Shown here piece after piece: positions 31,558 through 49,700 of a stretch of 64,000 nucleotides of DNA. The position numbers and the translations under genes are program-made. Numbering within the stretch: position 1 is the first letter of the stretch; each line of letters begins with the position of its first letter. The stretch is from a bacterium (GTDB lineage Bacteria; Ratteibacteria; UBA8468; B48-G9; JAFGKM01), in contig JALNXB010000003.1 in assembly GCA_023230585.1 (NCBI GenBank), forward strand, positions 22,060 through 86,059. Reading direction: 5' to 3'. The notes under the pieces are model-generated. The model was not told the origin of the DNA. It saw only the letters and a list, made by a program, of their open reading frames with translations, and did not search any database.

Positions 31558-31615
31558 TAGCAACTCCTTAAAATTAGAAACCCCTCCTAAATACACTTTT
31601 TTATAATAAAACAAG

Positions 31616-31689
31616 TACCCCTGGCCCGATTCGAACAGGCGACACACGGTTTAGGAAACCGTTGCTCTATCCATCTGAGCTACAGGGGC
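31616..31689 (-). tRNA. tRNA-Arg (anticodon CCT)
   Basis: The reverse complement reads GCCCCTGTAGCTCAGATGGATAGAGCAACGGTTTCCTAAACCGTGTGTCGCCTGTTCGAATCGGGCCAGGGGTA. It has a cloverleaf with a D-arm GCTC/GAGC, an anticodon stem ACGGT/ACCGT with loop TTCCTAA (anticodon CCT), and a T-arm GCCTG-TTCGAAT-CGGGC. A 7-bp acceptor stem has a G1:U72 wobble. No encoded CCA. Confidence 0.8.
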
Positions 31690-31799: not shown

Positions 31800-32030
31800 T
31801 ACAGATAGAAACGAAGGTTATTCCTCGGAGGTACTCGGACAAGACACAGTAGGAGAGGAATGTAAAGATTGTCCCTTATATGTCATTCCGGATTTATCCC
31901 AGCTTTTGCCTTCTACCCTTGGGGGAGAGGGATTAAGGGTGAGGGGGCTATAGAGAGGTTAATGGGATGAGTTTTATCCCTCGGGGATACTCTGGACAAG
32001 TCGCCGAAGGCGAAAAGGGATTGGGACATC
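31800..32030. repeat. Modular intergenic repeat, copy R5 (reverse-complement orientation)
   Basis: gggctatagagaggttaatgggatgagttttatccctcggggatactctggacaagtcgccgaaggcg is the reverse complement of modules B and D. tatgtcattccggatttatcc is an A-like module. Immediately downstream of the tRNA. Confidence 0.6.
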
Positions 32031-32036
32031 TATAAA

Positions 32037-32645
32037 TTAACTATTATTTGCTTTCGGCTTGCTTATTTCAATCCAACCACCATTCTTGTATGCAAAAAAT
32101 TCCCAGAAAATTTCTCCATTGACTCTTGACCCCAAGATTACTAAATGTTTTCTCATCGTTGAAAAATCATCAAAAACATCGGCTTTTTTGAGAATCTCAG
32201 CATACGCATTTAGATACACATCTTTATCCCTACCTTCTGGATAAGTAATGAGAACCTTAAGAGGGGAATTAAAAATGGATAGTTTATTCATCTCAAGGCT
32301 ACTATCCTTCATATTGTTTTCATGCTCAATGATTACAGGCAAGTATTCTGCACAAGAATAAGATGGATTCATCAATTCCTTTCCTTCTTTCTCGTAAAAA
32401 GTAGTGTATAAAACAGCATCCAATAACCAGTATTCCCTGTAATACTTCAATTCTAATCTCTCTACCACCATATACAGCAAACTCTTGTCGTCAGCTGTTT
32501 TTACAACCATATTCTTAGTAAAATTACCGGGATAATTCCATGAATCTATCAATAATTGCTCAAAATCTTTATCTTTTGCTGTGTTCTCTTTAGGTGCGTC
32601 TTTCTTTGGCTCAAGAGCATCCTCCCCTGTTGTGCTAAAAATCAC
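32037..32645 (-). CDS. Hypothetical protein (no recognisable family)
   Basis: 202-aa ORF with a charged N-terminus (DAPKENTAKDKD) and no TM or signal peptide. It sits between the tRNA/repeat and the IS element. Coding potential is judged from length and codon usage only. Confidence 0.35.
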   Translation of the reverse strand: MIFSTTGEDALEPKKDAPKENTAKDKDFEQLLIDSWNYPGNFTKNMVVKTADDKSLLYMVVERLELKYYREYWLLDAVLYTTFYEKEGKELMNPSYSCAEYLPVIIEHENNMKDSSLEMNKLSIFNSPLKVLITYPEGRDKDVYLNAYAEILKKADVFDDFSTMRKHLVILGSRVNGEIFWEFFAYKNGGWIEISKPKANNS

Positions 32646-32676: not shown

Positions 32677-34630
32677 CTAGCGTGAGTTTCCCACTTTCAT
32701 AACATAAAATAATACAAAATTAAGTAAGGATAAGGGTTTCCGCTTATTTTTTATGTATATACTAAAATAAATAATTAAAACAATATTATATACTCTTAAA
32801 ATGCTTGTTATTAAAAAGAATAAAAATATATTTGACAAAATAAAAAGGTATGTATATACTAATGTTATTATGGCAACATTACAGAAGAAAAAAGTAAATG
32901 GCAATGAATACTGGTATATAGTGGAATGCAGAAGGATTAATGGCAAACCTCAACCTGTTGTGCTTGAATATATAGGCAAGGTAGAGAATTTATTGAAACG
33001 TATTGAACAACAACGTGATAGAACAGTGAAGAGTTTTTCTCACGGCGCAGTATTGGGGTTATTAAATGCAAGTAAAGAGATAGAATTGCTGAACATACTT
33101 AATAAATATTTTCCTAAACAGAAGCGGGATGGGCTTAGCGTTGGACAGACCATCTTACTGGGAGCAATTCACCGGGTTGTCAAACCTGCAAGCAAGAGAA
33201 GTTTTAGTCAGTGGGTAGAGACCACCACTTTGCCTGAACAATGGGGTTTTGATGTGCGACGGATAACCAGTCAGCATTTCTGGGACCAGATGGATAAAAT
33301 AAGACAAGAAGATATAGAAAAGATAGAGGAGGAGATAATCAGGACGGTAGATAAGAAATATAGGTTAAACTGGTCTATATTGTTTTACGACAGCACAAAC
33401 TTTTATACTTATATTAATACCAGCAACTCAAAGAATACCATCGGGCAACGAGGCAAAAATAAACAGAAGAGAGATGACCTACGGCAATACAATCTCGCTC
33501 TTTTAACCACGAAAGATTTTTTTCTACCCATTTTTTCGTATATCTATCAGGGTAACAAGAATGATGTTTCTATCTTTCCTGAGTATTTGGAAAAAATGCT
33601 GCAAAGGTTGAAAAGCATTGTCGGGCAGGTTGAAGAAATAACGCTTGTTTTTGACAAGGGCAATAACAGCTCGAAAGGAATGGACATATTAAAGGAAAAG
33701 AAACTTGGGTATGTGGGGACACTCTCTATTTATTCTCATTCTGACTTAATAAAAATCCCTTATAAAAAATATGAACAAATAGAATTAGCGGACGGTAAAA
33801 AGGTTCTCGTCCACAGAGCTGAAAAAGAATTATGGGGTAAAGAGCACAGGATAATAATTAAGAGAAGCGAAAAACTAAAAGACGGACAGATAAGAGGTTT
33901 CTTTTTAGATATAGATAAAAAAGTCAATTCCCTGGAGTTGTTGAAGGAAAAGCTGAATTCGCCTGGTGCAAGAAAAAGAAACAAAGAACAGCTTCAAGAA
34001 CAGATAAGCAAGATTATTTCTGGAAAGCTGCTCAAAGGAGTTATAAAGGTAGAAATAAAAGAATCTGCAGAGAATAAAAGTGGGTTTGATGTATTATGGG
34101 TGATTGATAAAAAAGCCCAGAATAAAATAATAAATGAAGTTTTCGGCAAAAAGATATTTTTCACCAACAGGATGGAATGGACAAACGAAGAAATAATTGA
34201 AGCATATCATGGGCAAAGTAAAATAGAAAGAATATTCAGGCACCTTAAAAATCCATATCATTTTAGTGTACGACCTCAATACCACTGGACTGACCAAAAG
34301 ATAAAAGTACATACCTTCATTTGTCTGCTGGGATTATTGATAAGCGAGCTTTTGAGAAAAAAACTCTTTGACGCCGGTATGAAAATGTCGCTGGAGGAAA
34401 TCATAGAACGATTATCCAATATAAGAAAATCAACCACAATCTATTATACGGGTAAAAAGGGTAGACCAAAGGTTGAAAGCCAGTTGGAATCTATGAGCGA
34501 TATAGAAGAACAAATGTGGAAAATAATACAAAAAACAGCAGTTTAGTATATACAAGTCAAAATTGCTGTGTTATAATTATATCAATGGGTTCGACGCTTT
34601 TTTCCTTCTAAAGTGGGAAACTCACGCTAG
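32677..34630 (+). mobile_element. IS1634-family (IS4 superfamily) insertion sequence, ~1.95 kb, with 21-bp perfect terminal inverted repeats
   Basis: The left end ctagcgtgagtttcccacttt (32677-32697) is the exact reverse complement of the right end aaagtgggaaactcacgctag (34610-34630). A single 581-aa transposase ORF lies inside. Confidence 0.75.
32801..34546 (+). CDS. Transposase, IS1634 family
   Basis: 581 aa. The N-terminal ...KKVNGNEYWYIVECRRINGKPQPVVLEYIGK... matches the characteristic IS1634 N-terminus (gk.Y.Ylv.s.r..gk.rq..l.ylG). Size and single-ORF organisation fit IS1634. The alternative start is MATLQKK (32870). Confidence 0.7.
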   Translation: MLVIKKNKNIFDKIKRYVYTNVIMATLQKKKVNGNEYWYIVECRRINGKPQPVVLEYIGKVENLLKRIEQQRDRTVKSFSHGAVLGLLNASKEIELLNILNKYFPKQKRDGLSVGQTILLGAIHRVVKPASKRSFSQWVETTTLPEQWGFDVRRITSQHFWDQMDKIRQEDIEKIEEEIIRTVDKKYRLNWSILFYDSTNFYTYINTSNSKNTIGQRGKNKQKRDDLRQYNLALLTTKDFFLPIFSYIYQGNKNDVSIFPEYLEKMLQRLKSIVGQVEEITLVFDKGNNSSKGMDILKEKKLGYVGTLSIYSHSDLIKIPYKKYEQIELADGKKVLVHRAEKELWGKEHRIIIKRSEKLKDGQIRGFFLDIDKKVNSLELLKEKLNSPGARKRNKEQLQEQISKIISGKLLKGVIKVEIKESAENKSGFDVLWVIDKKAQNKIINEVFGKKIFFTNRMEWTNEEIIEAYHGQSKIERIFRHLKNPYHFSVRPQYHWTDQKIKVHTFICLLGLLISELLRKKLFDAGMKMSLEEIIERLSNIRKSTTIYYTGKKGRPKVESQLESMSDIEEQMWKIIQKTAV

Positions 34631-34692
34631 CTAGCTCCGACTACTGGACTTTGTCCGAACCGTAGAGAAATTGATAAAATGACATAAGCTGT

Positions 34693-34902
34693 TTATATCT
34701 TAATAGTAAGCTTCTTGCGTGAATTTGCGATATTTTTCCAAGATATTTCGTTTTCATGTGCTAAGCGATCTAATACAATATCAACGCTTATTCTATGACT
34801 CTTAGCAAAGTTTACGACTTCTTGTTTGTTAGAGTTTTGTAAATAGTCATCATCTTTAGTGGTAGCGAGGATTTCACTTACTATTTTTATAGAAAACCTC
34901 AA
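34693..34902 (-). other. Small ORF (69 aa) carrying a methyltransferase-tail-like block; probable gene remnant
   Basis: Contains ILATTKDDDYLQNSNKQ, encoded by a ~55-nt segment (34821-34875) that is nearly identical to 37878-37933 inside the frameshifted MTase tail ORF. The rest of the ORF is unrelated. Confidence 0.3.
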
Positions 34903-35378
34903 AAAAGAATACCCCCGCGGTGTTCATCCCATTTAGCAAGCTGAATTTTGCGATTAGTCATATACTCAAGCATGTCTTCACGCTGATATTTATTTATAAT
35001 ATTGTTTAAATGCACACTTAACCCTTGGGGAGATATCAGAATTGCTTGTGAAGGTCTTACAAGCTTTGAATAGACAAGGATTTGAGCAAGATGAGAAAAG
35101 TTTAAAGCTCCATATTTCACCTCTATAAATATCAATCCATACTTGTCTTTTTCTTTTACAACGCCTAATAAATCAATTTTGATTTTATATGTAGGATAGT
35201 CCGGAAAGTTTTTTCGAAACGTAGTTTTTGTAAAAAAATCGCTCAAGTAGATGTTATGAACATCATGAACCGTAACCTCAGCATTCCGATTCTTATTTTG
35301 CAGATAATCACAAAACCATTTTTTCATCGGTACATATAAAACAATCTCTCGTTTGGAAGTGTTTCCCTGCCTATTCAT
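34899..35378 (-). CDS. PD-(D/E)xK nuclease-fold candidate protein
   Basis: 159 aa. IDLLGVVKEKDKYGLIFIEVKYG gives a D...E-V-K arrangement typical of restriction-endonuclease-like folds. No further family assignment is possible by eye. Confidence 0.35.
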   Translation of the reverse strand: MNRQGNTSKREIVLYVPMKKWFCDYLQNKNRNAEVTVHDVHNIYLSDFFTKTTFRKNFPDYPTYKIKIDLLGVVKEKDKYGLIFIEVKYGALNFSHLAQILVYSKLVRPSQAILISPQGLSVHLNNIINKYQREDMLEYMTNRKIQLAKWDEHRGGILF

Positions 35379-35624
35379 TTTCTGTAATAGTAATTAAGTA
35401 ATTTAAAAGTTCCCTCCAATGGTTAAAATGTCGCCCTCGAAGAAAAACAGGTAGTTTTTCTGAAATTTCCTCTTTATGTTCTGGTTTTTCTTTTATCCTG
35501 TATGCCTTTTTTTTTCCTGCTGAGCGATAAATCATATTGCGATTTTTACTCGCCAATTCTTTAAGTACTTTATCTTTATGATTTAAATAGGAGCCTACCA
35601 GGGCAAATTGATTTGCAAAGATTT

Positions 35625-36259
35625 TTATTTGATGTTCTTTCGCCCAAAAACCCTTTGCTTTTTTTGTTCAGGATCTCTAAAATTCGGATGTCCAAAATCT
35701 ATAGTATGTATTGGCATTTCAATGTTATATAACAACTTAGCTAAATCAGCAATAAGCAACCAATTTCTCTGATCTGCTTCCAAATATATACGATGTTGAT
35801 CTTCTTTTCCAAAAGCAGCATTAGATTTTCTGATATGTCCAGTTGTATCAAAGTATCTCCTTAAAAATTCTTTTTGTATCTCTTTGTCAGCTTCAAAAAT
35901 TGTTCTTGGAATTCTAAAGGAATGAAAATCCGTAAATTCATCATTCAAAAGATATTTTAAGATTAGCCATGATAAATCCTCTCTATGCCAAGTAATTATT
36001 AACGATACATCGTTTTTATTACGATTCTCTTTAGCAAGATCAAGACTATATTTACGTATTCTATTTACGACTACATCTAAGCTATTTTATAACTCCAAAG
36101 GCTTATTGTATACATCTTTATAGCTTTTAGCAACTAAATTTTTATATGGAAAAGTAATTACCAAGCGCCATATTTGTCCTTCCTTAACAAAAATCCCTTT
36201 CCCCACAATAAGCCCTAAAAGATACGCTATGTCCTCGTTAAGAAAATCAGCAAATTATA
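35625..36259 (-). pseudogene. Degenerate double-motif LAGLIDADG homing-endonuclease-like gene with internal stop
   Basis: The reverse-strand reading frame gives ...FADFLNEDIAYLLGLIVGKGIFVKEGQIW...KPLEL*NSLDVV...KEFLRRYFDTTGHIRKS.... The two blocks YLLGLIVGKGIF and FLRRYFDTTGHI match LAGLIDADG motifs 1 and 2, but the catalytic acidic residues are replaced (K, T). An in-frame TAA lies at about 36096. Only the distal 107 codons (35625..35948) appear as an ORF in the track. Confidence 0.45.
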
Positions 36260-36388
36260 TTGGTTTTTTTCAAATATCAAAAGATGAGGCTTCTTATCAC
36301 AATTTAAGCATTTTTCTAACTTCAAAAGAAATAAAAAACTTTCGCAAAATATTCTAAAATTTTTTTATGATGGTCAATGTTATCGTTT

Positions 36389-37768
36389 TTACTCTATTAA
36401 CTTATAACCTAACCATTTTTCAAAAATTTCTTTATTTTCAACTTTTAATTTTTTAGATTGATACATTTTAGAATAAATTGCTTTAATCTCTGAAATATCC
36501 TCGCTTGTTAATAATCTTTTTTCGAACATCTGATACAATGTATCAGAAATTTTATTTGTTAAAATTAAGGACCTAACATTGGAAATTCTTTCAATAAGAA
36601 AAAATATTTCTGGCTCAGAAATTGACTTGCCTTTGGACCATTGAAAGAAATATTTGAGTGCCTCTGTAATACCATTTACTCTGTTTTCGAAGCGAACTGA
36701 AGATAAGTAAATTTCCAATATTTCTTCTTTTGAACATACTTTTTCAAACCACAGAGCTAAAATTATTTCAACTATTTTTCGCCTAAAAGTTTTATTCATT
36801 TCTTTTATGAACAATGTTCTAACTAATTGCTGAGTAATAGTTGAACCTCCTGAACGACGTTTTTTTCCTATAATACCTAAAATAGCTCTTGCGATTGCTT
36901 TTATGCTAATTCCTTTATGTTTATAAAAACCACGATCTTCGATGAATATTAGATTTTTTTTAAATACTGTTAAATCAATTTTCATACGTTGAGTTTCATA
37001 CACTGCTAATTTAGCTCTGTAGATTACGTATTCAAAATCTTTTACAAGTCCTAAATGAAAACAACTAGCAAGTCTTTTAGCAAGACTTAATACTAATCTT
37101 TCATTTGTATCGTATAATGCGAAACGAAAAGAGAAAGAAATTACAATGACCCACAACATAAGAAAAATAGCAGCAAAGGTTATTTGATTACTTGGAGATG
37201 ACATAATACTAGATAATGAAACGAAATTTTTGATTATATGTGGCAAAATTCCATACAAAAGAATGGTCGAAGTTACACAAATTAGCCAAAAGGGATATGT
37301 AACATACGAAAACCAGCCAGGAAAAAGCTTTATGGCAAATGGATTAGTGGCTCCCTCTATTCTCCAATTAGGTAAAACTAAGTGCTGGGTGCCATAATAC
37401 AAACCTAGCATGTGTCTTAAAATGACAATTTTTCTTGAATCAAAAATTATTGACTTTTGCCTCTCTGCAAAATATCTTACCGTTAACCAAGAAAAAGAAC
37501 AAATTATAAATGTAAGAATTAATAACGTTTGTGTTGATAACGCACCATTAAAAAATTTAGTAGGATTGTGGAGAAAACTTACAGCTATTGAACCGAGCAT
37601 AGCAGATATTACGAGGATAAAATTTGCTGCGTTTAAAAATATTCGTTCTTGAGATTGAATATTTGCGGCACAATTTTCATATTCCTTAAGCAAAATATCT
37701 CTATCCGTAAATTTAGAAGCTGGATAATATTGTTGCCAATCAGCTTCTTTCTCTTTTAATTTGGTCAT
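36389..37768 (-). CDS. Polytopic membrane protein with C-terminal GT51 peptidoglycan-glycosyltransferase (transglycosylase) domain
   Basis: 459 aa. The N-terminal ~230 aa hold at least 6 predicted TM helices. The C-terminal part carries the diagnostic GT51 motifs EDRGFYKHKGISIKAIARA (EDxxFxxHxG) and GGSTITQQLVRTLF (GGSTITQQ), plus RRKIVEIILALWFE and EILEIYLSSVRF...ISEPEIFFL. It lies in an accessory/defense context, not in a cell-wall cluster. Confidence 0.6.
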   Translation of the reverse strand: MTKLKEKEADWQQYYPASKFTDRDILLKEYENCAANIQSQERIFLNAANFILVISAMLGSIAVSFLHNPTKFFNGALSTQTLLILTFIICSFSWLTVRYFAERQKSIIFDSRKIVILRHMLGLYYGTQHLVLPNWRIEGATNPFAIKLFPGWFSYVTYPFWLICVTSTILLYGILPHIIKNFVSLSSIMSSPSNQITFAAIFLMLWVIVISFSFRFALYDTNERLVLSLAKRLASCFHLGLVKDFEYVIYRAKLAVYETQRMKIDLTVFKKNLIFIEDRGFYKHKGISIKAIARAILGIIGKKRRSGGSTITQQLVRTLFIKEMNKTFRRKIVEIILALWFEKVCSKEEILEIYLSSVRFENRVNGITEALKYFFQWSKGKSISEPEIFFLIERISNVRSLILTNKISDTLYQMFEKRLLTSEDISEIKAIYSKMYQSKKLKVENKEIFEKWLGYKLIE

Positions 37769-37773
37769 AAATT

Positions 37774-37956
37774 TTAGGTTGAAGATTCATTTTCGATGGT
37801 TTGGATTTCTTCTTCGGTTAGGTCGTGGAGTTTATAGACAAGTTGGTCGATTTGTTTTTCGTATTCTTTAACTTTTGCTTGTTTGTTAGAGTTTTCTAAA
37901 TAGTCATCATCTTTAGTAGTAGCAAGGATTTTAGAATTATTCAAATCAATCTTCAT
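37774..37956 (-). other. Displaced C-terminal tail of the adjacent methyltransferase gene (separated by a +1 frameshift)
   Basis: The 60-aa ORF ends ...EKQIDQLVYKLHDLTEEEIQTIENESST. This is the canonical C-terminal tail of type IIG/Eco57I/PglX-class MTases (...IDrLVYeLYgLTeEEIkiVE). Its start overlaps the MTase stop (37946), and the frames differ by one nucleotide around ggaaatgaagattgattt (rc). Confidence 0.5.
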
Positions 37957-40900
37957 TTCCTAATAACCTAAACTCTAGTTCATAATTTTTTACAAATCTC
38001 AATTCTTCTTGACTAAGCCCATACAGGGGCGCAATGTAATCATCGATTCCATCAATATATTTTTTTGATTTGCTTATTTTATACTCCTTGAAGGAATCTA
38101 TATTTGCATAATTCCTTGTTGTTCTTATGCGCGCATTTTCTTCAACGCTTTTTAGATAAGTGACGTATAACTCTTTAATTTTTTTGATATTTTCCTTGCT
38201 TATTTTATTTAGGGGAATTGGAAATGATTCAACCTCGTACGATTTTAGATTTAAGTTATCGGAATAAATCTGATAAAACCAAAAAAATAAATTACTACTT
38301 AAAATTGCCCCCACAATGTCAGCTATCTCACTATCAAAACATATTTTTCTTTCCGCGGAAGAACCCGTAGAGTAGTTCGTAACGACTTTGAAATATCGCC
38401 CTCCAGCAAAACGATAATATATTGGTTTACCGCTGTCGTTTAAAAGATCTTTAATTTTTATTTTTAATTTGAGCAATTTTTTCAACATATCGATTTCGAT
38501 AGGTAAGCCAATTTTAGGATACCTTCCTCTAAGCTTATAATCTTTTACGTCTATAAATTGAAGGTTCTTCAATAAGTTAGCTAAATCAAATCTTTTTCCT
38601 TTCCTATACATTTTTGTTGTCATAATCTGCTCATTTCTTGCAAGCGTCTTAATAAAAAAAAGAATAGCTGTATTTACAACAGAATTTTCAAATATAGGCT
38701 GTGGTCTAACAGCGTAAGATGAAATTTTGATAATCCTGCAGTTTTCTTCCAAAAGTTCGTGTATATTTGCCATCGAATCGCTAGAAGTTATAGATATCGG
38801 TAATATGAAATTGAGACTGCCATTCTTTATTAGAATATTAAAGCCCATTTCAGTAAATATGACAAAGGTATCTGTAGAACCCCTTTGTCCTTCATAAGTT
38901 TTTGTGCTTTTATAGCGCATTTTAAAGAACTCTTTTTCCTGATTCGAATATTTAGCTCCATACGGCGGGTTTCCAATAACTATATCAAAACCACCTTTTT
39001 CAAAGACTTCTGCAAAGTAGAGTTTCCAGAGGAAAAACGGTCGTGTTTTATTCTTGCTGGTAAATTCTCGAAGTTGTTTTTCTATATTTTCTAAATCAAA
39101 GCCGGTTTTTTTAGAAAGTTTTTGTTTTTCTTTCGATATTTGTTCTTCGCGTGTTTTCTTGTTAGGAAGTATCTCATATTTCCTTTCAATGTCTTCTATT
39201 TGTCTAAAATAACCTGCTTTCTGTTTTTTTATTTTTGATTCAAAGATTTTTATCATCAAATCTTCCACTTCTTGTTTTAATTTATTTTTTTTATGTCTGT
39301 CGGATTCATTTTGAAAATCAAATTTCTTTTGCTCAAATTCTTTAATAATAGAGTCTGCCTTTTCTTCAAATCCCAACCCTGTCTGCTCTTTTTCTTCTCC
39401 GTTTTCTTTATCAAAATCTATCCCAAGAAATTCAGAAATCAGACTATTGCCCTGCATAATTTTAAAATCAAGGTTTGGCAATGCTTCAATCCCATAGTTT
39501 TCTTTTGTTTCATCAATTTTTTCATCTACAAGAAGAGAAATGAAGAAGCGTAGTTTAGTTATTTCTACAGCGATTTGCTGAATATCCACGCCGTAAATAC
39601 ATTTTTGTATTAAGTATAGTTTACGTCCATAGTCAGCATTTTTGTCTTTGAAGAATTCTTCAATCTGCTGTTTTGCAATTTTGCTGACCTGTAGGTCTGG
39701 TATTTTATTTGCGGCTGCGAGTTGTGCCTGTTTCCATAATTCGTTGTCAGGGTCAATTTTACCAAGGATAAATACCATCTTGTTAAGTGCGCCCATTGGA
39801 AAAGCACCTGAACCCACAGCCGGGTCAACAATTCTAACGCTTTCAATTAGTTCCGCAAGTTCTTTAGATTCAGATTTATTAAAAGGGTTTTCCTCTTTTT
39901 CTTTTGAAAACAAGGTGTCAAGTTTCCCGTCAATATTGTCTATTTCTGAAAGGTGTGTCTTGAAATACGCTTTAAGCGATTCTACAACCATATAATCAAC
40001 AATTTCTCTTGGAGTATAATAACTGCCGGTAGCTTTGCGAGCGGTAGTGGATGTCTCAGGATTAAAACTTGCCAGAAGATTTTCAAAAACCCTGCCCAGA
40101 AGTTCTGGGTCAAGAGCAATATCTGCATCGTCTGGAGAGTTTTCGTCAATAGTAAAGTTAAATGAAGATAAAATATTCAAAAGTCCCTGTACCTTATAGT
40201 TCTTGTTTTTAGTACCATAATCAGAGTTTAAGTCAATATTTTGCTCATCGCTGAAGAATAGAAAATTCGGGACACTCGGTTGATATTCTTGTTTTCTTTC
40301 AGTAAAACCATCTATGTAAATATCATTTGTACCATCATCGAGACAGTCAAACAGCCCACCGTTAAGAAACGGAATATTTCCAAAATATTCTTCCATTTTT
40401 TCAGAGTTTGTAAAAAGGTCATGGTAACGATATACGTATTGATTGCTGAAATCGGGATTATATCCTTTATACCCACGTATTTCGCTTCTGAACTGTCGTT
40501 CGCCTTTTTTGGTATTTAAGGTAGCGAAAAACAGGTTTTGCAAGATTGCCCGATAGTAAGTTGAATCGTCAGAATCAATGTTTTTAAGAATTCCATTGAT
40601 ATTTTCTTTTTCAAACAGTTCTTTTGGCATCAAACCTTTTTCCCGCATAAACCAGATAAAAATCATTCTTGTTATTAGCCGGATAATAGCAACATTCCTA
40701 CCATTATCTTCTACCTCGGCATCCTTGGGGAATCTGGAATTCTTAACCGCCCAGAAATACCAGTAAGCTATATCTTGGTAAAATTCCTTAGTAACCTTTT
40801 CTACAGAAAAAATTTCCTTAATTTTTTCCAGAGAAGAAAAATTACCTTCAGAAATTCTTTGAAGAAATGTTTTATTTGTAAGATCTTTACTTACAAAATA

Positions 40901-41287
40901 GGTAAAGCGGCGGAAAGCGCTCCAATCACGACGTTTACCCAGATAGTTTGCGTAGATTAAACTGAAACGAAAGTTGCCATTTTTATCATAAAAAATAAAA
41001 ATACCTGCATCGGTCTGGGTCTCTTTAAGGATTTTCTTACCCAGTTCATACTGTACTTTTTTCCCTGCTCTTTCTGTTAGAGGTTTTTTAACAGGCAACG
41101 AACATACTATTAGGTTTCCATCTTCAAAATCAATTTCTTCCAATTTGGTGCCCTGTCCGAAGTTATCATCCTCGTGACGCAGAGACTCATTGGGATGGCG
41201 GAATTTATCATTCGCCTCACGAAAAAACCTTATGAATTTTTCTTCATTAAAATTGTTAATAATATCCTGGAGAATTTGTCTTTTCAT
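37946..41287 (-). CDS. Gamma-class N6-adenine DNA methyltransferase with N-terminal helical domain and C-terminal target-recognition region (type IIG/PglX-like)
   Basis: 1113 aa. AdoMet motif I is DPAVGSGAFPMGAL. Catalytic motif IV is IVIGNPPYG, with a long coiled-coil insertion between motifs I and IV. The N-terminal region carries ...ILQNLFFATLNT...RYHDLF...IPFLNGGLFD, blocks typical of Eco57I/MmeI/PglX-type enzymes. The C-terminal ~300 aa is TRD-like. The start overlaps the stop of the PLD-SNF2 gene by 4 nt. Confidence 0.75.
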   Translation of the reverse strand: MKRQILQDIINNFNEEKFIRFFREANDKFRHPNESLRHEDDNFGQGTKLEEIDFEDGNLIVCSLPVKKPLTERAGKKVQYELGKKILKETQTDAGIFIFYDKNGNFRFSLIYANYLGKRRDWSAFRRFTYFVSKDLTNKTFLQRISEGNFSSLEKIKEIFSVEKVTKEFYQDIAYWYFWAVKNSRFPKDAEVEDNGRNVAIIRLITRMIFIWFMREKGLMPKELFEKENINGILKNIDSDDSTYYRAILQNLFFATLNTKKGERQFRSEIRGYKGYNPDFSNQYVYRYHDLFTNSEKMEEYFGNIPFLNGGLFDCLDDGTNDIYIDGFTERKQEYQPSVPNFLFFSDEQNIDLNSDYGTKNKNYKVQGLLNILSSFNFTIDENSPDDADIALDPELLGRVFENLLASFNPETSTTARKATGSYYTPREIVDYMVVESLKAYFKTHLSEIDNIDGKLDTLFSKEKEENPFNKSESKELAELIESVRIVDPAVGSGAFPMGALNKMVFILGKIDPDNELWKQAQLAAANKIPDLQVSKIAKQQIEEFFKDKNADYGRKLYLIQKCIYGVDIQQIAVEITKLRFFISLLVDEKIDETKENYGIEALPNLDFKIMQGNSLISEFLGIDFDKENGEEKEQTGLGFEEKADSIIKEFEQKKFDFQNESDRHKKNKLKQEVEDLMIKIFESKIKKQKAGYFRQIEDIERKYEILPNKKTREEQISKEKQKLSKKTGFDLENIEKQLREFTSKNKTRPFFLWKLYFAEVFEKGGFDIVIGNPPYGAKYSNQEKEFFKMRYKSTKTYEGQRGSTDTFVIFTEMGFNILIKNGSLNFILPISITSSDSMANIHELLEENCRIIKISSYAVRPQPIFENSVVNTAILFFIKTLARNEQIMTTKMYRKGKRFDLANLLKNLQFIDVKDYKLRGRYPKIGLPIEIDMLKKLLKLKIKIKDLLNDSGKPIYYRFAGGRYFKVVTNYSTGSSAERKICFDSEIADIVGAILSSNLFFWFYQIYSDNLNLKSYEVESFPIPLNKISKENIKKIKELYVTYLKSVEENARIRTTRNYANIDSFKEYKISKSKKYIDGIDDYIAPLYGLSQEELRFVKNYELEFRLLGNED

Positions 41288-44200
41288 AATTTTTGATTTT
41301 CAATAGCAACAATAATTTCTTTAGTTAAATTCTTTTGTTGGAATTTCTCTCTTTCAAGATAATCAGCACCAAGTTTATCTTTCAAAGCATAGATTTCTTT
41401 GAGAGATTGGTTAAGTTGTTTTTCTGTGCTGCTTTCAAAGTTGGCTATCCTTCGCAATGTATAATCCGGCAATGTGCCATAATCGGTAATATCTTCAAGC
41501 AGTACTTTTAAGAAATTTTTTACCAGTTGTATTTCTTCTGTATGGTTTCTATATATAAGTGTCTTAAGGTTGTTCTTGGCTTGTTCTTCCAAACTTCGTT
41601 CAGTTGGCGGTCCTACTCTGTGATCCCTGAAGTTTTTTATACTTTCATAAGCACTCCAAAACTTTGCTCCGAGTTCTAACGGTTCTTCGTCAGGTTTACA
41701 CAGAATTTTATTGTAGGATTCTTCAAAAGTTGCCTGAAAAAAGGTATCTTTCTCTTCCTGCTTGTATATGGTTCCATGAATATACAGTCTGCCTTTTTTA
41801 AGAAAGACCAATAGTTCATCTGTATCAGCTTTTTTTGCCACTTTTATACGTGGAGGGAAAGTTTCCAAAGCAGCAATTAGACCTGGATTTTCTTTTTTTA
41901 TTCTTATAAACTCTTTTAAAGCCTTTGTATAAAAACTTTCTTCTTCCAGTTTGTCGGGATTTTGTTGCATTTTGTTATATAATTTGGCAGGAGACGGTTC
42001 TTCGTCAATAGCAAATATTTTAGAATCTTCACCGAGAGTATTATGAATCAAAAACATTTTATTGCTGGCAATCTCCCTTGCTTGTACCAATTCTGCCCCC
42101 TGTTCAGTAGGAAAGAAGTTGACGATAAAAAGTTTGTCAAACACTTTTTTACTTATTCGGTTGATACGTCCCAACCGTTGAATAATGCGAACAGGATTCC
42201 ATGGAATATCATAATTGATGACAATACCAGAACGGTTTAGGTTAAAACCTTCTGAAATTTTATCTGAAGATAACAAGATATCAAAATCATCTTTCTGTTC
42301 AGAGAAGGAAGCGTCAAAATTTGTGTTTATTGCAGATAGGTTTTTTGCTGTCAGGTCACCAGCAATAACCAGCAACCTATCGCCAAAGACTTTTTTAATA
42401 TGTGGTTCAAGATATTTCACTGTATCAAGATATTCGGAAAAGATAACAATTTTTCTGTTGGGCTCTTTTTTTAGTTGAGATTCAAGGTTTTTAATCAAAC
42501 AAGATGTCTTGGGATCATTTCTGACCAGATTAAATTTATTCAGAGAATCAAGAATTTCATTGAAAAGCTTCAGGTCAGATTTTATGTCTTCTATAAATTC
42601 ATCTCTATACTTAAAGTCAGCCAGTTTATAAACTTTATGGTTTTTAGGATACTCGCCTGCGTTGATTTTTTTCGTATATTCGTCCAGATGTTCTTCAATC
42701 TCTTCTGGTTCTTTGTCGTATATTCGTTCAAGCAAACTTCTATCCAGTATATATTTGCCTGTTCGCTCAATGAATGTTAAGACTGATTCAGCAATACGTT
42801 TGAAGTTTTTAAGACTTTGTTCAAAGGAGCCGAACGAACTTTCAAATCTTTTTACCAGCAACCGGCGCATAAAATCGTATAGATTACGTTGGGAATAAAA
42901 TTCAAAATTTTCTTTATCAGACAGTTTTTCTCCCACAATTTTTTCTTTTGCCGTTTCGTATTCAAAAGGCCTGTAAATCGCTCCCTTAAACATTCCGCCG
43001 TTATCAGGGTCGCCAAAGTATAATTTGATTACATTGTCATAAAGAACAGATTGTTCCTTTGTCAGTTCAAAGAACCATTCTTTAGGGTCGGCAACCTTAG
43101 ACAGATTTTTTACTTCTTTGTTATAATCTGGGTTTTCTTCCAAATCTAAACGATTGCGTCGAATAGTTACGGGTTCTATAACATCTCGTATCTGTTTTGC
43201 CAGATATTTTGAACGTCTTGCTACTTTTTCCAAACCAGAGACAACATCAAATTTTTCTCCAAAAAATGTTTTGTAATCACTATGTGCTTTACTACGTTTT
43301 TGCTGGTTTGTTGCATTCCAGTGTTTCTTGATATAACCGAGTCGGTCAAAAGAACCTTTGAAAGACTTGAAGCGATCAACAAGACTGTTTTCCATGGTTA
43401 TTGATGATTTCTTTGGAGTGATAAATAGTTTGAGAAGTGATAAAATGTCACCTGGGCGGTTGTTGAACGGAGTAGCAGTAAGAAGCATTACTAATTTGTT
43501 ACGACAGATATTTTTTAAATATTCATAACTCTCCGTATCTTGGTTTCTGAACCGATGTGCTTCGTCAACTATAACAACCTCTACATCTTTGGTTTTCTTT
43601 ACAAATTCCTGAAGTTTTTCCAAATCACCGAGAGACCATACCTCCCAGTCATATAAACCAAATTGCTCTTTATACATATTCCAGCCGGAATCTTTTTTTC
43701 TGGGGTCTCCCATAATACCGGGCGGGCAGATTATTACTCCTCTTTTCCGCAATTCTTTGGCAACGGAACAAGCAATAATAGTTTTACCCAGCCCTACAAC
43801 GTCAGCAAGAATAACACCATTGTTGTTTTCTATTATTGCTAATGCTTGGCGAATAGCATCCAATTGATATTGATAAGGTATATAGCCGTTGTCTTCGAGA
43901 GTTTTGATAAGAGATTGCCCAATTTCTCTTTTTTCAAAAGAATCAAGGTATATTTTCAGAATAAGAACAAACGCTTCAAATGGAGTGATTTTTTTGACTA
44001 GGGTTTCTTTTTCAACAAGTTCTATCAATCTTTTCTTAAGATCTGTATTTTCGGTAATTTTGACCGCTTCGTTCCATAAGGTATCATAGTATTCTTCAGC
44101 ACTTTCAAAACCGTAATCGCTGATTTCAACGTTAAACTCTTCTTGAGTAGTAAGCCCTAAACCTGTAAGGTTACTGCTACCGGTGATGAAGAGATTTTGG

Positions 44201-44649
44201 CGTCCTACCTGCTCATCCTGCAATTTGAATATGTATAGTTTCGCATGGTTAGGATGGAAGGTCTTTCTTATAATGAGCCGATTACTTTTTATAAGGTCCA
44301 TAAAAAACTTGACTTGTATGTAAAATTCTTTGGTGTCAAACTTTTCAGTGTTAATGGATTTTTTTATGGATTCAAAAAACCTTTGGCTTATTTCTTCATT
44401 AGATAAACGACCGCTGTGATCATCTAAATCAGCATACTCAACCAATTGAAAATTTAATTTATCAACATTGAGACCAACCAGGACTTTAAGTATTACTTTG
44501 GGGTTTTGCTTGAGTTCAGAGCAAAGTTCCCTTATACCAGAGAAATAAAAAAAACCGACCAAAAATTTTAATTCATCACTTTTGCTTATCAGTTTAACCA
44601 GTCGTTTTTTTAGGTTTTCTGCACCACTATTGGTTATGAAATTTTTCAT
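41284..44649 (-). CDS. PLD-family nuclease domain fused to SNF2-family (SF2) helicase/ATPase
   Basis: 1121 aa. The N-terminus has a single PLD HKD-type motif HAKLYIF...ITGSSNLT (HxK...GSxN). The SNF2 motifs are motif I ADVVGLGKTIIA, motif II VVIVDEAHRFRN (DEAH), motif III LLTATPFNN and motif VI IIQRLGRINR. The 3' end overlaps the MTase start (translational coupling). Confidence 0.75.
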   Translation of the reverse strand: MKNFITNSGAENLKKRLVKLISKSDELKFLVGFFYFSGIRELCSELKQNPKVILKVLVGLNVDKLNFQLVEYADLDDHSGRLSNEEISQRFFESIKKSINTEKFDTKEFYIQVKFFMDLIKSNRLIIRKTFHPNHAKLYIFKLQDEQVGRQNLFITGSSNLTGLGLTTQEEFNVEISDYGFESAEEYYDTLWNEAVKITENTDLKKRLIELVEKETLVKKITPFEAFVLILKIYLDSFEKREIGQSLIKTLEDNGYIPYQYQLDAIRQALAIIENNNGVILADVVGLGKTIIACSVAKELRKRGVIICPPGIMGDPRKKDSGWNMYKEQFGLYDWEVWSLGDLEKLQEFVKKTKDVEVVIVDEAHRFRNQDTESYEYLKNICRNKLVMLLTATPFNNRPGDILSLLKLFITPKKSSITMENSLVDRFKSFKGSFDRLGYIKKHWNATNQQKRSKAHSDYKTFFGEKFDVVSGLEKVARRSKYLAKQIRDVIEPVTIRRNRLDLEENPDYNKEVKNLSKVADPKEWFFELTKEQSVLYDNVIKLYFGDPDNGGMFKGAIYRPFEYETAKEKIVGEKLSDKENFEFYSQRNLYDFMRRLLVKRFESSFGSFEQSLKNFKRIAESVLTFIERTGKYILDRSLLERIYDKEPEEIEEHLDEYTKKINAGEYPKNHKVYKLADFKYRDEFIEDIKSDLKLFNEILDSLNKFNLVRNDPKTSCLIKNLESQLKKEPNRKIVIFSEYLDTVKYLEPHIKKVFGDRLLVIAGDLTAKNLSAINTNFDASFSEQKDDFDILLSSDKISEGFNLNRSGIVINYDIPWNPVRIIQRLGRINRISKKVFDKLFIVNFFPTEQGAELVQAREIASNKMFLIHNTLGEDSKIFAIDEEPSPAKLYNKMQQNPDKLEEESFYTKALKEFIRIKKENPGLIAALETFPPRIKVAKKADTDELLVFLKKGRLYIHGTIYKQEEKDTFFQATFEESYNKILCKPDEEPLELGAKFWSAYESIKNFRDHRVGPPTERSLEEQAKNNLKTLIYRNHTEEIQLVKNFLKVLLEDITDYGTLPDYTLRRIANFESSTEKQLNQSLKEIYALKDKLGADYLEREKFQQKNLTKEIIVAIENQKL

Positions 44650-44855: not shown

Positions 44856-45104
44856 TTATGTGCTAAGGGAAGAAATGTTTGAAATGATTTTATCGGCGAA
44901 TTTAAGTGCAGTAGTTCCTTGTGCTTCTATAGCTACAGACCAACTTTTATAATAATCTGCTTTTACTCGCAAATCTTTGAGACGATCTAAATTTATTCCG
45001 ACCTCTCTTTTCTTTATATCACTACTTAAACAAAATTCATTACTAACAAATAAATGGCTATTTATTGAGGGAATAATTTCGCCTTCTTTATCTTTTCCTC
45101 TCAA
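44856..45104 (-). CDS. Small hypothetical protein (82 aa), possibly a HEPN-like fragment
   Basis: Isolated ORF in a 600-bp gap between the defense genes and the GH42-like gene. It carries LRVKADYY, weakly resembling R-x4-H/Y HEPN-type motifs. Too short for a confident call. Confidence 0.2.
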   Translation of the reverse strand: MRGKDKEGEIIPSINSHLFVSNEFCLSSDIKKREVGINLDRLKDLRVKADYYKSWSVAIEAQGTTALKFADKIISNISSLST

Positions 45105-45267
45105 GGGTAGAAAGCAAAAGTGTAAAGGAGAAGGATTTTTTAGTACTTGAATAGGGAATACGGAAGCGTTTTATTTTTCTTAGTTTCTTTATAAACTATT
45201 AGTATCTTTTAGTAATAAATAGTAATATAATAGATATCATTCCAGCCCGTTAAACAATGGAGGGAAA

Positions 45268-48147
45268 ATGAAATATATACAGCAACTTGAACCTGAACCA
45301 CCTCAACCTGAAGAAAAAGATTGGGGATTTATTAAAATTCTAAGTGAACCTCTACATCAACCTTTCAAATGGAAAAGACTCAAAGCAAAGGAGAGAGAAG
45401 CCTCTCTTAAATACGGAGTCAAAATCATCAACAAGTTCCCTGATAAAGAAGGATTGCTAGAAACTGCATTTGAAGATTTTAAGAGGTTTTTTGAATGCGG
45501 AGAAATATCTGTAGAAGGTACCTTTCCCATTGTTATAAAAAAAGTTAAAACATCTACATTTGAAGAGTATATTATCCTTATTAAAAAAGATAAAATAGAA
45601 GTGCAGGCAGGGGATACTGAGGGGATAAGGAGAGGATTGGTATATCTTGAGGACGAACTTTTGCGTTCGGGAGGACCTTTTCTCAAGTATGGTAAAATAA
45701 AGCGCACCCCTGTTATAAAAACTCGTATATCAAGATGTTGTTACGGACCTATAAACCGCCCTCCTAAAAATAGGGATGAACTTAATGATGATATAGACTA
45801 CTACCCAGATGAGTATCTCAACAGACTCGCTCATAATGGAGTAAACGGGTTATGGTTAACGATTACTTTCGCAGATACTGTTCCCTCTAAAATCATACCT
45901 GAATATGGCAAAAACTCAGAAAAACGGCTCAAAAAATTAAGGGCTACTGTTGACAAATGTAGGCGTTACGGAATAAAAATTTACCCTTTCTGTATTGAAC
46001 CAATAGCTTTTGCTATAGGTGACCCTATGATAAAAAAATATCCTGAACTTCAAGGGCACAACAATAATGCTTTTTCTTATTTCTGCACTTCTACTGATAA
46101 AGGGAAAGCATATATAAAAGAATCAATATACAACTTATTTAGTAGCGTTCCTAACCTTGGAGGTCTCATAAATATTTCAGTAGGAGAACGACCTACAAAC
46201 TGTTATGCAGGTACCTCGTTAAATAATAACTGTCCTTTATGTAGTAAAAGGGAGCCGGCAGAGGTTGTTTCCGAAATGCTTTCTATTATGGCAAAAAGTA
46301 TGCATAAAGCCAACCCTTCAGCCCAACTGATTTCTTGGCATTACAGTCAGTACGTAGGTTGGGGCGAAAAAGCAACAGAAGAAGCTGCTGGTAAAATGCC
46401 AAAAAACATTGTTCTTCAATTTAACTTTGAGTCTGCAGGGAGAACAGAACAACTCGGTAAGGTAAGATATGCAGGGGATTACTGGCTTTCTTATGTAGGA
46501 CCAAGCAATCTATTCAAAAAATGTGCTATAAATGCAGTCAAAGCAGGGACACCTATTTTTGCTAAAATACAGGTAAGTTGTTCGCATGAAGTGGCTACTG
46601 TACCTTGGATTTCAGTCCCGAGTTACCTCTACCGTAAATTTAAATCTATGCATAAATTAGGCGTTACCGGGGTAATGGAATGCTGGTTTTTTGGAGCATA
46701 CCCAGGGCTTATGACAAAAGCAGCAGGAGAACTTTCGTTTGCGCCGTTCCCAAAAAATGAAGATGTTTTTTTAAAAAAACTGGCAGGTTGCTGGTGGCAA
46801 GCAGATACTGCAAAAACTGTTGAAGCGTGGGAATTGTTTAGAGACGCTTATTCCAATTACCCAGTAAACGCTATGTTCGGGTATTATGGACCAATGCACG
46901 ACGGACCTGTATGGCCACTACATCTGAAACCACAAAACAAGCCTCTTGCTCCCACCTATCTAATAAATTACCCGCCAAGCGGAGACAGAATAGGGCAGTC
47001 TTTCACTTTTACTCACACCATCCCTGAAATATTGAGTTTATGCAAAAATATGTCTGAAGAGTGGAATAAAGGTGTAAAAATATTAAAAAAAGAGTTGGTT
47101 AAAAATCAAGGCAACATTGATATTGAAGAAAAGTTGAGGGTAGATGAAGCTCTCGGAATACAGTTTGAGAGCGGGTACCATATTCTTAGGTTTTATGACC
47201 TACGTGAAAAACTTTTTGAGATGGAAGGTCTAAAGCGGTTAAATATTCTCAAACAGATGAAACAGATTGTAGTTGATGAACTTGATAGAAGCAAACAACT
47301 TTTAGAACTTACAAAAAAAGACCCTCGTTTGGGTTTTCACGCAGAAGCTGAAGGTTATAAATATTTTCCTGAAAAAATTTTATGGAGGATGAAGTGGCTT
47401 GAACAAGTTCTTAAAGAAGATTTTCCTTATGTAGAAAAAGAAATTAAAAAAGGTAACTTGTTGTTCCCTGAATATACGGGTAAAAAACCTCCACCTCCTG
47501 TTTATAGATGCAAGGAAATCTCTAAAACAATCAGAGATAAAACTGAATCTATAATTGACAACCTCCTTGAAGAAAACCTGCCTTTCTGGTTCTATTTTGA
47601 TAAGACAAAAAAAGAGTTTAAACCTGAAACTGGTAAATTTGTGCAGAAATATAAGACTTTCTGGAAGGCTTTTTGCATTGAAGATGCTCTAAATTTTATT
47701 GTCAAATGCCAGACACCAAATATAGCAACTCTACAAGTAAAAGGGAAGCAAGAGTTTGAGTATATTGAAACTGTTCAAATACAGATAGAGACCAGACGGC
47801 TCTTCCCTCCTTCTAATTTCGTTGTTGATTCTAAAGGAGAGAAAAATTTAAGAAATATTGCTCACGGAAATTACACCCAAAAAGATTCTTTATGGAATGT
47901 TACAGTTAAGGTAGAAAACGACTCTTGGACTGCTTTTTTTCGAATACCTTACAAGTGTTTACCTCATACAAGCGATAGGTACAGGTTAAATATCGTTAGA
48001 GGTGTATCAAAAAAAGAAGGAGAAAGAGGACTTTTTAAAAGTTATATAAACAAGTGGATAGATTACAAAACACTTCCAAAAAATTTACTTGCTTTTGGCA
48101 GAGAAGACCCTGCTTACAATTTCGGTTGGTTGATAAAAGATGAATAG
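45268..48147 (+). CDS. GH42-like glycoside hydrolase (TIM barrel with Cys-rich Zn-site-like motif) with N- and C-terminal extensions; C-terminus CBM9-like
   Basis: 959 aa with no signal peptide. DYYPDEYLNRLAHNGVNGLWL resembles the GH42 N-terminal YYPE.W......G.N.V block. FSYFCTSTDKGKAYIKE and NCYAGTSLNNNCPLCSKREPAEVV line up with the GH42 Cys-cluster (HYCFSSP.../C....CYCPRCQ). The C-terminal W/Y-rich block resembles the CBM9-like domain of the 1401-aa protein. Confidence 0.4.
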   Translation: MKYIQQLEPEPPQPEEKDWGFIKILSEPLHQPFKWKRLKAKEREASLKYGVKIINKFPDKEGLLETAFEDFKRFFECGEISVEGTFPIVIKKVKTSTFEEYIILIKKDKIEVQAGDTEGIRRGLVYLEDELLRSGGPFLKYGKIKRTPVIKTRISRCCYGPINRPPKNRDELNDDIDYYPDEYLNRLAHNGVNGLWLTITFADTVPSKIIPEYGKNSEKRLKKLRATVDKCRRYGIKIYPFCIEPIAFAIGDPMIKKYPELQGHNNNAFSYFCTSTDKGKAYIKESIYNLFSSVPNLGGLINISVGERPTNCYAGTSLNNNCPLCSKREPAEVVSEMLSIMAKSMHKANPSAQLISWHYSQYVGWGEKATEEAAGKMPKNIVLQFNFESAGRTEQLGKVRYAGDYWLSYVGPSNLFKKCAINAVKAGTPIFAKIQVSCSHEVATVPWISVPSYLYRKFKSMHKLGVTGVMECWFFGAYPGLMTKAAGELSFAPFPKNEDVFLKKLAGCWWQADTAKTVEAWELFRDAYSNYPVNAMFGYYGPMHDGPVWPLHLKPQNKPLAPTYLINYPPSGDRIGQSFTFTHTIPEILSLCKNMSEEWNKGVKILKKELVKNQGNIDIEEKLRVDEALGIQFESGYHILRFYDLREKLFEMEGLKRLNILKQMKQIVVDELDRSKQLLELTKKDPRLGFHAEAEGYKYFPEKILWRMKWLEQVLKEDFPYVEKEIKKGNLLFPEYTGKKPPPPVYRCKEISKTIRDKTESIIDNLLEENLPFWFYFDKTKKEFKPETGKFVQKYKTFWKAFCIEDALNFIVKCQTPNIATLQVKGKQEFEYIETVQIQIETRRLFPPSNFVVDSKGEKNLRNIAHGNYTQKDSLWNVTVKVENDSWTAFFRIPYKCLPHTSDRYRLNIVRGVSKKEGERGLFKSYINKWIDYKTLPKNLLAFGREDPAYNFGWLIKDE

Positions 48148-49404: not shown

Positions 49405-49700
49405 TTACCCTTGCTTCCCATTCCTTTTCCGCCTTCGGCGAGATTGCCACGCCAAAAGCCCTACTGCGCCAAGGTATACCTGCCGAAGCTTGTGTTTTAG
49501 CGTAGGTTGGCTTCGGCGGATAAAACTCGCAAGACAAACTACAAAAGCAAAATACCCCCTCATCCTTGATCCTTCTCCCCCAAGAGGAGAAGGCAAAAAC
49601 TCCTTATTTCTGCAAACCTCGAAGGTTTCCTCAGCTTAAAAACGAGATTCCGGATCAAGTCCGGAATGACAAGCAGGGGGGATCTTTGTCTTTATTTTAT
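49405..49700. repeat. Modular intergenic repeat, copy R6 (modules C, B-variant, E, A)
   Basis: ttccttttccgccttcggcgagattgccacgcc (module C) is identical to 60160-60190. gcgtaggttggcttcggcggataaaactcgcaagacaaactacaaaagc is a B-like module. aaaaacgagattccggatcaagtccggaatgacaagcagggggg is the module A hairpin. Confidence 0.7.

Follow-up and report, generated by a model that had tools for sequence, protein, structure and literature searches.

Why does one 54-nucleotide (nt) block of coding sequence stand twice, in the same orientation and some 3 kb apart, at the 3′ end of a restriction-type methyltransferase gene? The window analyzed here (64,000 nt; Ratteibacteria; GenBank assembly GCA_023230585.1, contig JALNXB010000003.1, positions 22,060 to 86,059, forward strand) carries this pair, which we call block X, at 34821-34874 and 37878-37931. 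Both copies are the same 18 codons of the C-terminal tail (~80 residues) of an Eco57I/PglX/DrmMI-like adenine methyltransferase (MTase), and neither belongs to a working gene today. On balance, and with moderate confidence, we read them as scars of serial homology-anchored recombination at the MTase 3′ end.

A preliminary description of the locus had taken the repeats to bracket one 3-kb cargo inserted beside the MTase tail, with cassette exchange, homologous capture, or a former second MTase gene as possible causes. The recombination footprint that it placed at the MTase 3′ end holds, with homologous capture or cassette exchange as the best reading (mosaic MTase, contiguity at a related locus, relics that recur elsewhere). 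A single inserted cargo does not, since two unrelated modules make up the interior and the one next to the right repeat is that repeat's native continuation; nor was evidence found at the locus for a former complete second MTase gene.

The repeat pair and the conserved methyltransferase tail

37878-37931, minus strand: right block X, codons for ILATTKDDDYLENSNKQ, within the orphaned tail T1 (tail-profile positions ~35-52)
34821-34874, minus strand: left block X, codons for ILATTKDDDYLQNSNKQ, an isolated tail relic
37774-37956, minus strand: T1, an open reading frame (ORF) of 60 amino acids (aa), complete orphaned MTase tail (profile 28/31-80; tail hidden Markov model, PADLOC, and loci L009 and L021)
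34693-34902, minus strand: T2, 69-aa chimeric ORF, probably not a gene, made of the flank of a second restriction-modification operon (R-M2; 34902-34881), ~7 nt, block X, and 129 nt without known relatives
37946-41287, minus strand: mosaic Eco57I/PglX/DrmMI-like N6-adenine MTase, 1113 aa (Pfam Eco57I, N6_Mtase, and MmeI_Mtase; PADLOC)
37946-38947, minus strand: replaced C-terminal specificity module (TRD_B; TRD, target recognition domain), MTase residues ~781-1113, with its own stop (identity switch; PDLC03628)
41284-44649, minus strand: PLD (HKD) nuclease plus SNF2 helicase, 1121 aa, conserved partner of the MTase (Pfam, PADLOC)

A repeat search of the window gave a direct repeat of 54 nt with 51 of 54 positions identical, sharp edges, and a start-to-start distance of 3057 nt; pairwise alignment of the 170-nt flanks put identity at background level at once on either side. 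A degenerate pattern search counted exactly two copies in the 64-kb window (0 expected from 100 shuffles). The mismatches, at repeat positions 19, 41, and 47 (G/C, T/C, and T/C on the coding strand), leave perfect runs of 18, 21, 5, and 7 nt; two of the three are synonymous third-position changes, and the remaining one exchanges E and Q. Near identity and common orientation had thus been described correctly, as had the peptide ILATTKDDDYL(E/Q)NSNKQ encoded by either copy on the minus strand within the 60-aa and 69-aa ORFs, although only three of the four differences first counted lie within the repeat, the fourth being the first flanking base. The arrangement and its junctions are identical in contigs from six independent assemblies (≥99.96% identity to the window), among which no population variant occurred, so that the suspected heterogeneity at the repeat found no evidence.

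Two common sources of repeats were rejected. A longer, widespread dispersed repeat unrelated to the MTase tail, which the preliminary description had allowed for, is contradicted by the count of two and by the one related metagenome match, itself an in-frame MTase tail (L047). Target-site duplication by a transposon or insertion sequence (IS) is shorter (<15 bp) and comes with terminal inverted repeats, whereas the repeat measures 54 nt and the edges of the 3-kb segment carry no inverted repeats.

The window MTase was compared with 32 loci encoding homologs, from metagenome-assembled genomes of many phyla (fetched loci are cited by number). The PLD-SNF2 helicase gene is present in most of them, usually immediately upstream of the MTase, and in loci with an in-frame tail the MTase is a single ORF of ~1190-1200 aa whose last ~55 residues are homologous to T1. 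Such tails end in ...KILSITKTDDYLNNPDKQAQVKEYEKEIDQLVYKLYGLTPEEINIVEGN (L009) and ...KILSLTQFKDYLENPQKQARVKQYERQIDQLVYKLYGLTQDEIKIVEGEI (L021); a search of metagenome contigs with back-translated ILATTKDDDYL added L047, whose MTase carries ...RILATTKDDDYLQNPQKQAKVK... and ends in frame with ...RILATTKDDDYLQNPQKQAKVKALEREIDQMVYQLYGLTEEEIRIVEGA*, and which holds the left-copy peptide ILATTKDDDYLQNSNKQ in frame within this natural tail. A hidden Markov model of 81 positions, built from 11 natural in-frame tails, matched T1 (E 3e-25, positions 31-80) and T2 residues 5-30 (E 7e-9, positions 27-52, of which only ~35-52 are truly tail-derived). Several PADLOC type IIG profiles also match T1 at their extreme C-termini (last ~40 positions). 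Profile, in-frame homologs (L009, L021, and L047), and PADLOC C-termini together bear out the earlier view that both blocks are MTase-tail pieces. In related genomes the tail is indeed in frame at the MTase end; a relative without the 3-kb segment was not found in the collections, each searched once.

On the minus strand the window reads PLD-SNF2 helicase, MTase, T1, a 459-aa GT51 protein, a broken gene, a 159-aa ORF, T2, and an IS1634-family element. The right copy was first described as part of the MTase tail, but the MTase (C-terminus ...FVKNYELEFRLLGNED*, stop at 37946) stops 11 nt into the 60-aa ORF and in a different frame, leaving the tail orphaned. Binned identity along the MTase shows residues 1-600 at 80-95% to L009 and mostly 10-58% to L028 and L035 (one bin, 70%); residues 601-780 are less similar to L009 (42-75%), and residues 781-1113 share 18-33% with L009 against 45-78% (mostly 53-78%) with L028 and L035, whose MTases end like that of the window, without an in-frame tail. 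The nearest relative switches at residue ~780, with the NPPY motif at residue 773. PADLOC is split likewise, the N-part matching PDLC03612 (whose last 40 positions match T1) and the C-part matching PDLC03628 end to end. The identity switch and the split matches show that the specificity module between NPPY and about tail position 28 was replaced by a foreign module, whose own stop codon orphaned T1.

This swap is like TRD or C-terminal module substitution in type IIG genes, in which an unrelated C-terminal module follows the conserved N-terminal and catalytic portion, the breakpoint falling at a conserved motif (NPPY). Unlike the usual case, its 3′ border is imprecise: the incoming module retained its stop codon, and the old 53-residue tail was left out of frame. 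In L028 (profile 51-80) and L033 (profile 55-78), leftover tails likewise stand, independently, right after the stop of a module of this type, and none is seen in L035. Programmed frameshifting that fuses MTase and T1 was considered and dismissed, as a TAG stands in the T1 frame two codons before its ATG and GAT-TGA offers no slippery site. As a separate observation, the L028 MTase (Chlorobiaceae; ORF 9383-13468) contains an in-frame insertion of ~237 aa (10889-11599) with an IS200-like Y1 transposase domain (Pfam Y1_Tnp, E 9e-9); it lies between the equivalents of window MTase residues 447 and 450 and leaves the ORF unbroken.

Two modules between the repeats and the left junction

36240-37884, minus strand: module (a), tail C-part, 5-nt gap, GT51 protein, and ~150 nt of 3′ flank (87% nt identity to L041)
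36389-37768, minus strand: GT51 membrane protein, 459 aa (Pfam Transgly, 1e-35)
34881-36267, minus strand: module (b), R-M2 remnant with the pseudogene of a 300-aa gene, the 159-aa gene, and 20 nt of 3′ flank (comparison with L048, L050, and L051)
34899-35378, minus strand: 159-aa protein of predicted PD-(D/E)xK fold, intact (fold search, invariant residues)
34631-34820, no strand assigned: 190 nt between the left repeat and the IS, origin not matched
32677-34630, plus strand: IS1634-family IS with perfect terminal inverted repeats of 21 nt, not involved in forming the repeat

Module (a) matches L041 at 87% nt identity over 1651 nt, with equal 5-nt gene spacing; the match begins 7 nt inside the right block X, runs through the rest of the tail and the GT51 gene, and continues to ~150 nt past it. 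In L041 the closest relative of the GT51 protein (83% aa identity) stands 5 nt after the stop of a different MTase with the in-frame tail ...ILSILQSNDSLKQAKVKQYEHQIDQLVYKLYGLTEDEIKIIENKHST*. Because tail C-part and GT51 gene are contiguous there behind another MTase, the sequence after the right block X is the native continuation of the tail, and the right edge of the repeat is not an insertion junction.

The annotation of the GT51 protein in the preliminary description was confirmed by Pfam. Its family (>1500 full-length homologs, ~450 aa) has four N-terminal hydrophobic segments, intact catalytic motifs (EDxxF..H, GGSTITQQ, and RRKxxE), and no transpeptidase domain; we found neither a PADLOC model nor a paper on it. 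Members were located in the window (36389-37768, minus strand), L041 (1311-2663), L043 (4593-5936), and L055 (4868-6244), and four of the five contexts examined are defense-type neighborhoods, with type IIG-like MTases (window, L041, and L043), GmrSD (L041), or TIR proteins and a reverse transcriptase (L055). A search for the protein on plasmids gave no match, and viral contigs gave matches at the level of the GT51 domain only. It may be an unrecognized defense-associated effector. In L043 the gene comes after an MmeI-like MTase, and a large serine recombinase (8335-9795; Resolvase, Recombinase, and Zn_ribbon_recom) lies 2.4 kb downstream; that block may be an integrative element there.

Module (b) corresponds to the end of an operon that is native in L048 (5260-8483) and L051 (1084-4313), where it encodes a fused D12 plus N6_N4 MTase of ~615 aa, a 300-aa protein, and a 160-aa protein; we found no published description of such an operon. 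Window positions 36267-34908 align with it at 73% nt identity, and the last two genes overlap by 8 nt in L048, L051, and the window alike. The 300-aa LAGLIDADG-like gene has decayed (start codon lost, in-frame stop at ~36089, frameshift at ~35640), such that the ORFs of 107 aa and 54 aa are pieces of a single pseudogene; with a stop and a frameshift bridged, it shares 76-78% aa identity over 292 residues with intact homologs, which confirms the pseudogene call made earlier. The accompanying LAGLIDADG label holds up too, although the intact homologs match Pfam LAGLIDADG_3 just under the curated cut-off (E 2e-4 to 7e-4). In L041 as in the window, the 300-aa gene has lost its ATG, and its initial ~25 nt are common to both; the junction between GT51 and R-M2 therefore predates the split between them.

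The 159-aa ORF has ~40 homologs at 65-90% identity. Its AlphaFold model (predicted local distance difference test score, 74) gave weak Foldseek matches against the PDB (E ~0.01-0.1), most of the best being PD-(D/E)xK nucleases (MspJI, BstEII, EndoMS, Hjc, and BamHI); D69 and K88 are invariant in the family, and E86 nearly so. Fold search and conserved residues support the PD-(D/E)xK fold first assigned to it as the predicted one. With the R-M2 MTase gene absent at the window locus, the 159-aa gene is the orphan of an operon that has lost its methylase. That operon's MTase was also considered as the source of the left block X and rejected, as the MTases of L048 and L051 contain no tail motif.

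The left copy sits in the chimeric ORF T2. L050, the closest R-M2 relative (89% nt identity), matches through the stop of the 159-aa gene and 20 nt of flank (...TATAAAAATAG, to 34881) and then diverges; block X starts ~7 nt farther on. Because L050 matches up to 34881, the start of T2 (MRFSIKI...) belongs to the R-M2 3′ flank and not to the MTase tail, contrary to the profile alignment of FSIKIVSE. The heptamer AAATAGT at this junction (34881-34887) is common to the R-M2 flank of L050 and the corresponding place in the L047 tail (GAA ATA GTT = E I V), which suggests a microhomology joint of 6-7 nt, AAATAG(T). Over the 30 nt upstream of block X, T2 agrees with the L047 tail at 15/30 positions and with T1 at 6/30, so T2 does not look like a simple local copy of T1 and its flanks.

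Beyond block X, the 42-aa end of T2 (...SVDIVLDRLAHENEIS) resembles ...QIDQLVYKLHDLTEEEI by eye; it was rejected as a diverged tail C-part, with a profile score of -0.5 (E 0.24) and no homolog in a full HMMER search of 1.84 billion representatives. A word-indexed search of 5.8 billion proteins returned no homolog of T2 but itself, and the 190-nt stretch resembled none of the fetched loci and nothing else in the window. The IS was also rejected as the maker of the repeat, since its right end at 34630 (62 nt from the stop of T2) is separated from block X by these 190 nt and its inverted repeats are unrelated. Two single-nucleotide polymorphisms inside its transposase gene (33962 and 33994) are the only differences between the window and several same-population assemblies, and a metagenome contig from ENA likewise differs at two positions, both inside the IS; more than one copy or allele of the IS in the population is suggested.

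Proposed recombination at the methyltransferase 3′ end

All fetched loci were translated in six frames and searched with the tail profile. Short tail-end relics, lying in small frames, turned up in L015, L028, L033, L041, L047, and the window, every convincing one (E <0.02) downstream of the MTase and on its strand, starting at profile position 27/35, 51, 55, 61, or 68 according to the locus. L047 offers a cleaner, one-gene version of the window layout: two direct copies of the tail end (74 nt, 92%; 1711-1784 and 2718-2791), with the stop/start overlap to the following gene included, enclose just one gene, of 310 aa and without a Pfam match. A 50-nt direct repeat (82%) surrounds the GT51 gene and a lipase-like gene in L041, and L015 has one of 40 nt (73%). 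By this comparison the layout of full tail, new material, and 5′-truncated tail relic on the same strand recurs in independent lineages. In L015 (13537-15022) the MTase tail is followed by a partial ORF in convergent orientation, which has a TaqI_C-like specificity domain and a tail of its own, by a serine recombinase of the resolvase type (199 aa, Pfam E 4e-34), and by a further tail-end relic; this may be an invertible specificity cassette for phase variation.

Serial homology-anchored recombination would account for this layout as follows. Each event would have imported DNA from a related MTase locus, which paired on the left through MTase and tail homology and whose right end entered the resident tail by an illegitimate joint, in the case of the left copy probably at the AAATAG(T) microhomology; the remnant of the resident tail would thereby have been pushed downstream of the new cargo. 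As stratigraphy, T2 would be the older resident tail, and T1 the tail displaced by a later swap of the specificity module. The full tail at the MTase, the new material behind it, the 5′-truncated older tail downstream on the same strand, the variable truncation, and the lack of a recombinase all point to the logic of homology-facilitated illegitimate recombination. Domain searches revealed no integrase or recombinase in the island or between or beside the repeats, and no RNA element was found in the island other than a tRNA 3 kb away.

Homology-facilitated illegitimate recombination was reportedly described by de Vries and Wackernagel in 2002, in experiments with naturally transformable bacteria in which recipient DNA was deleted; the present host is uncultured and is represented by metagenome contigs alone. 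The locus would be like that process in a one-sided homologous anchor, which the MTase and tail homology and the module shared with L041 make plausible, in a putative joint at a few bases of microhomology, and in the foreign DNA caught beside a conserved gene. It would be unlike it in that the joint lies inside the anchor-homologous region, so that a duplication remains.

Several points weigh against this reading. Homology-facilitated illegitimate recombination usually deletes recipient DNA and does not duplicate it. No empty site (predicted junction '...AATTCTAAAATCCTTGCTAC...AACAAACAAGAAGTCGTAAAC'), deletion variant, donor, or resident sequence was found in the six assemblies, the 5.8 billion proteins, or a pattern search of metagenome contigs, each collection searched once, so that we infer in which direction and sequence the events ran. 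Other relics are truncated on the 5′ side only but the left relic at both ends, and a second, unexplained event at 34821/34820 is needed. The 94% identity is limited to 54 nt with sharp edges, and ~10 tail-derived nt upstream differ, which could point to a gene-conversion patch and not to two inherited alleles. The microhomology of the left junction was read from the tail of another lineage (L047) and not from the actual resident, and three mismatches (two synonymous and one E/Q) make any argument from dating or selection very weak.

Single-crossover (Campbell-type) integration, or insertion with long target duplication, would have a 3.0-kb circular or linear unit carrying block X recombine with a resident block X. 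It would explain why 54-nt direct repeats bracket 3.0 kb without a transposase or integrase inside; restriction-modification (R-M) genes flanked by direct repeats of 41-423 bp form a documented class (Nobusato et al. 2000; Furuta, Abe & Kobayashi 2010, PMC2853133; repeats include 44/46, 59/64, and 417/423), and the 1007-nt unit with its 74-nt repeat in L047 looks alike. The window resembles this class as a few-kb segment of restriction genes whose repeats are far longer than transposon duplications (54 nt, where the class has >30 bp), overlap a gene 3′ end, and enclose 3.0 kb (<20 kb in the class) without other mobile-element genes, the IS1634-family element standing outside. It differs in that the repeat is itself a piece of an R-M gene; the right copy is natively contiguous with the following sequence in L041, L047, and L009; the interior is a patchwork of two modules and, with the R-M2 MTase absent, contains no M gene, although published criteria demand homologs of both R and M; no genome with an empty site was found; and the event looks homology-driven, not like insertion into an unrelated target. 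The unit would also be an odd composite (tail C-part, GT51, an R-M remnant without M, and flank), and the site before insertion would need to have been a tail already fused to the 34820-side sequence. [quoted passage not shown] We hold this route to be unlikely, though not negligible. Local copying, by gene conversion from T1 over 54 nt of an old, diverged left relic or as 54 nt of templated filler copied from T1 at the R-M2 joint, fits the 94% identity inside the block with random identity on both sides, and its template lies 3 kb away in the same orientation. The two synonymous changes and the natural Q variant of L047 nevertheless look like two functional alleles (weak evidence), the profile score of -0.5 leaves no tail trace after the block and hence no old relic to convert there, and relics at other loci are explained without it; we judge it distinctly improbable.

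Repeats of this kind could also be the attL and attR of a site-specific island that targeted the MTase 3′ end and whose integrase has disappeared since. When integrative elements insert at the 3′ end of a gene or tRNA, they supply a new 3′ end and create direct repeats of ~50 nt, of which one completes the target while the other stands orphaned beyond the cargo, as here, and serine recombinases occur near related cargo (in L043, 2.4 kb past GT51; in L015, between tail copies). In the window, however, neither a whole nor a fragmentary integrase or recombinase gene is present between the repeats or next to them, the repeats are imperfect, the crossover is not fixed among loci, with relics starting at five different profile positions, and the interior is a patchwork of decayed modules, which together make such an island very improbable. 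Scarcely credible is a functional switch, be it programmed deletion or amplification of the cargo, which direct repeats are able to mediate, or a pair of variable and template repeats from a diversity-generating retroelement, whose variable repeats sit at gene 3′ ends. All six assemblies have identical junctions, no chimeric ORF resulting from deletion occurs among the 5.8 billion proteins, and both copies lie in non-functional ORFs. With a longest perfect run of only 21 nt, deletion between the copies by a RecA-type route should be rare. The retroelement variant was rejected outright, as the island encodes no reverse transcriptase domain and the mismatches lack adenine specificity. Today the repeats are probably inert and without function.

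Surroundings of the island and significance

31873-32001; 566-585; 3581-3673; 45102-45120; 49416-49598; 60027-60117; 61386-61405: copies of a short dispersed repeat

A tRNA-Arg(CCT) gene (31615-31689, minus strand) lies ~350 nt from the left edge of the island (202-aa ORF, 32037-32645, minus strand), with the island on the 5′ side of the tRNA. No tRNA-Arg-derived repeat was found at the far edge, only unrelated short dispersed repeats. These are intergenic across the window (17-44 nt, 88-100% identical, inverted relative to the 31873-32001 copy); the copies at 31873-32001 and 45102-45120 bracket the island, and one copy lies between the helicase gene and a 959-aa ORF (45268-48147, plus strand). 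This ORF and the 202-aa ORF, which form the island edges, have no match in Pfam, NCBIfam, or PADLOC and no counterpart in related MTase loci.

Accessory genes embedded in R-M operons are familiar, for example, prrC within the type I hsd locus. The window is like them in having unrelated defense-type genes lodged beside or within an R-M operon, but part of its cargo is decayed.

A more ambitious interpretation would make the conserved MTase tail a recombinase-free docking site for accessory defense cassettes, an active and general mechanism, which we consider improbable. Units of a tail piece plus one or more genes would enter related MTase loci by RecA-type pairing, as the tail C-part and GT51 shared by the window and L041 suggest. 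If this were true, the incoming tail copy would restore the MTase frame, the direct repeat would permit later excision, amplification, or onward transfer, and genes would accrete as in an integron, but with a protein-coding anchor in the place of attI/attC; the nested relics (T1 and T2; L041, L047, and L015) would then record an active mechanism and not occasional accidents.

The locus is an ordinary, if unusually legible, scar of restriction-system evolution and not a new kind of element. Current concepts are unchanged by it, as module substitution and repeat-flanked R-M insertion have been known since 2000-2010. It displays at base resolution how specificity modules are swapped at NPPY, how downstream genes are captured at the conserved tail, and how imprecise events leave datable tail relics. 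Annotation should treat the ORFs of 60 aa and 69 aa as relics and not as genes. Systematic follow-up would be most worthwhile for the tail relics that recur and for the GT51 family in defense contexts, and tail relics could serve as cheap markers of the order of acquisition in defense islands and of recombination anchors in other defense genes.

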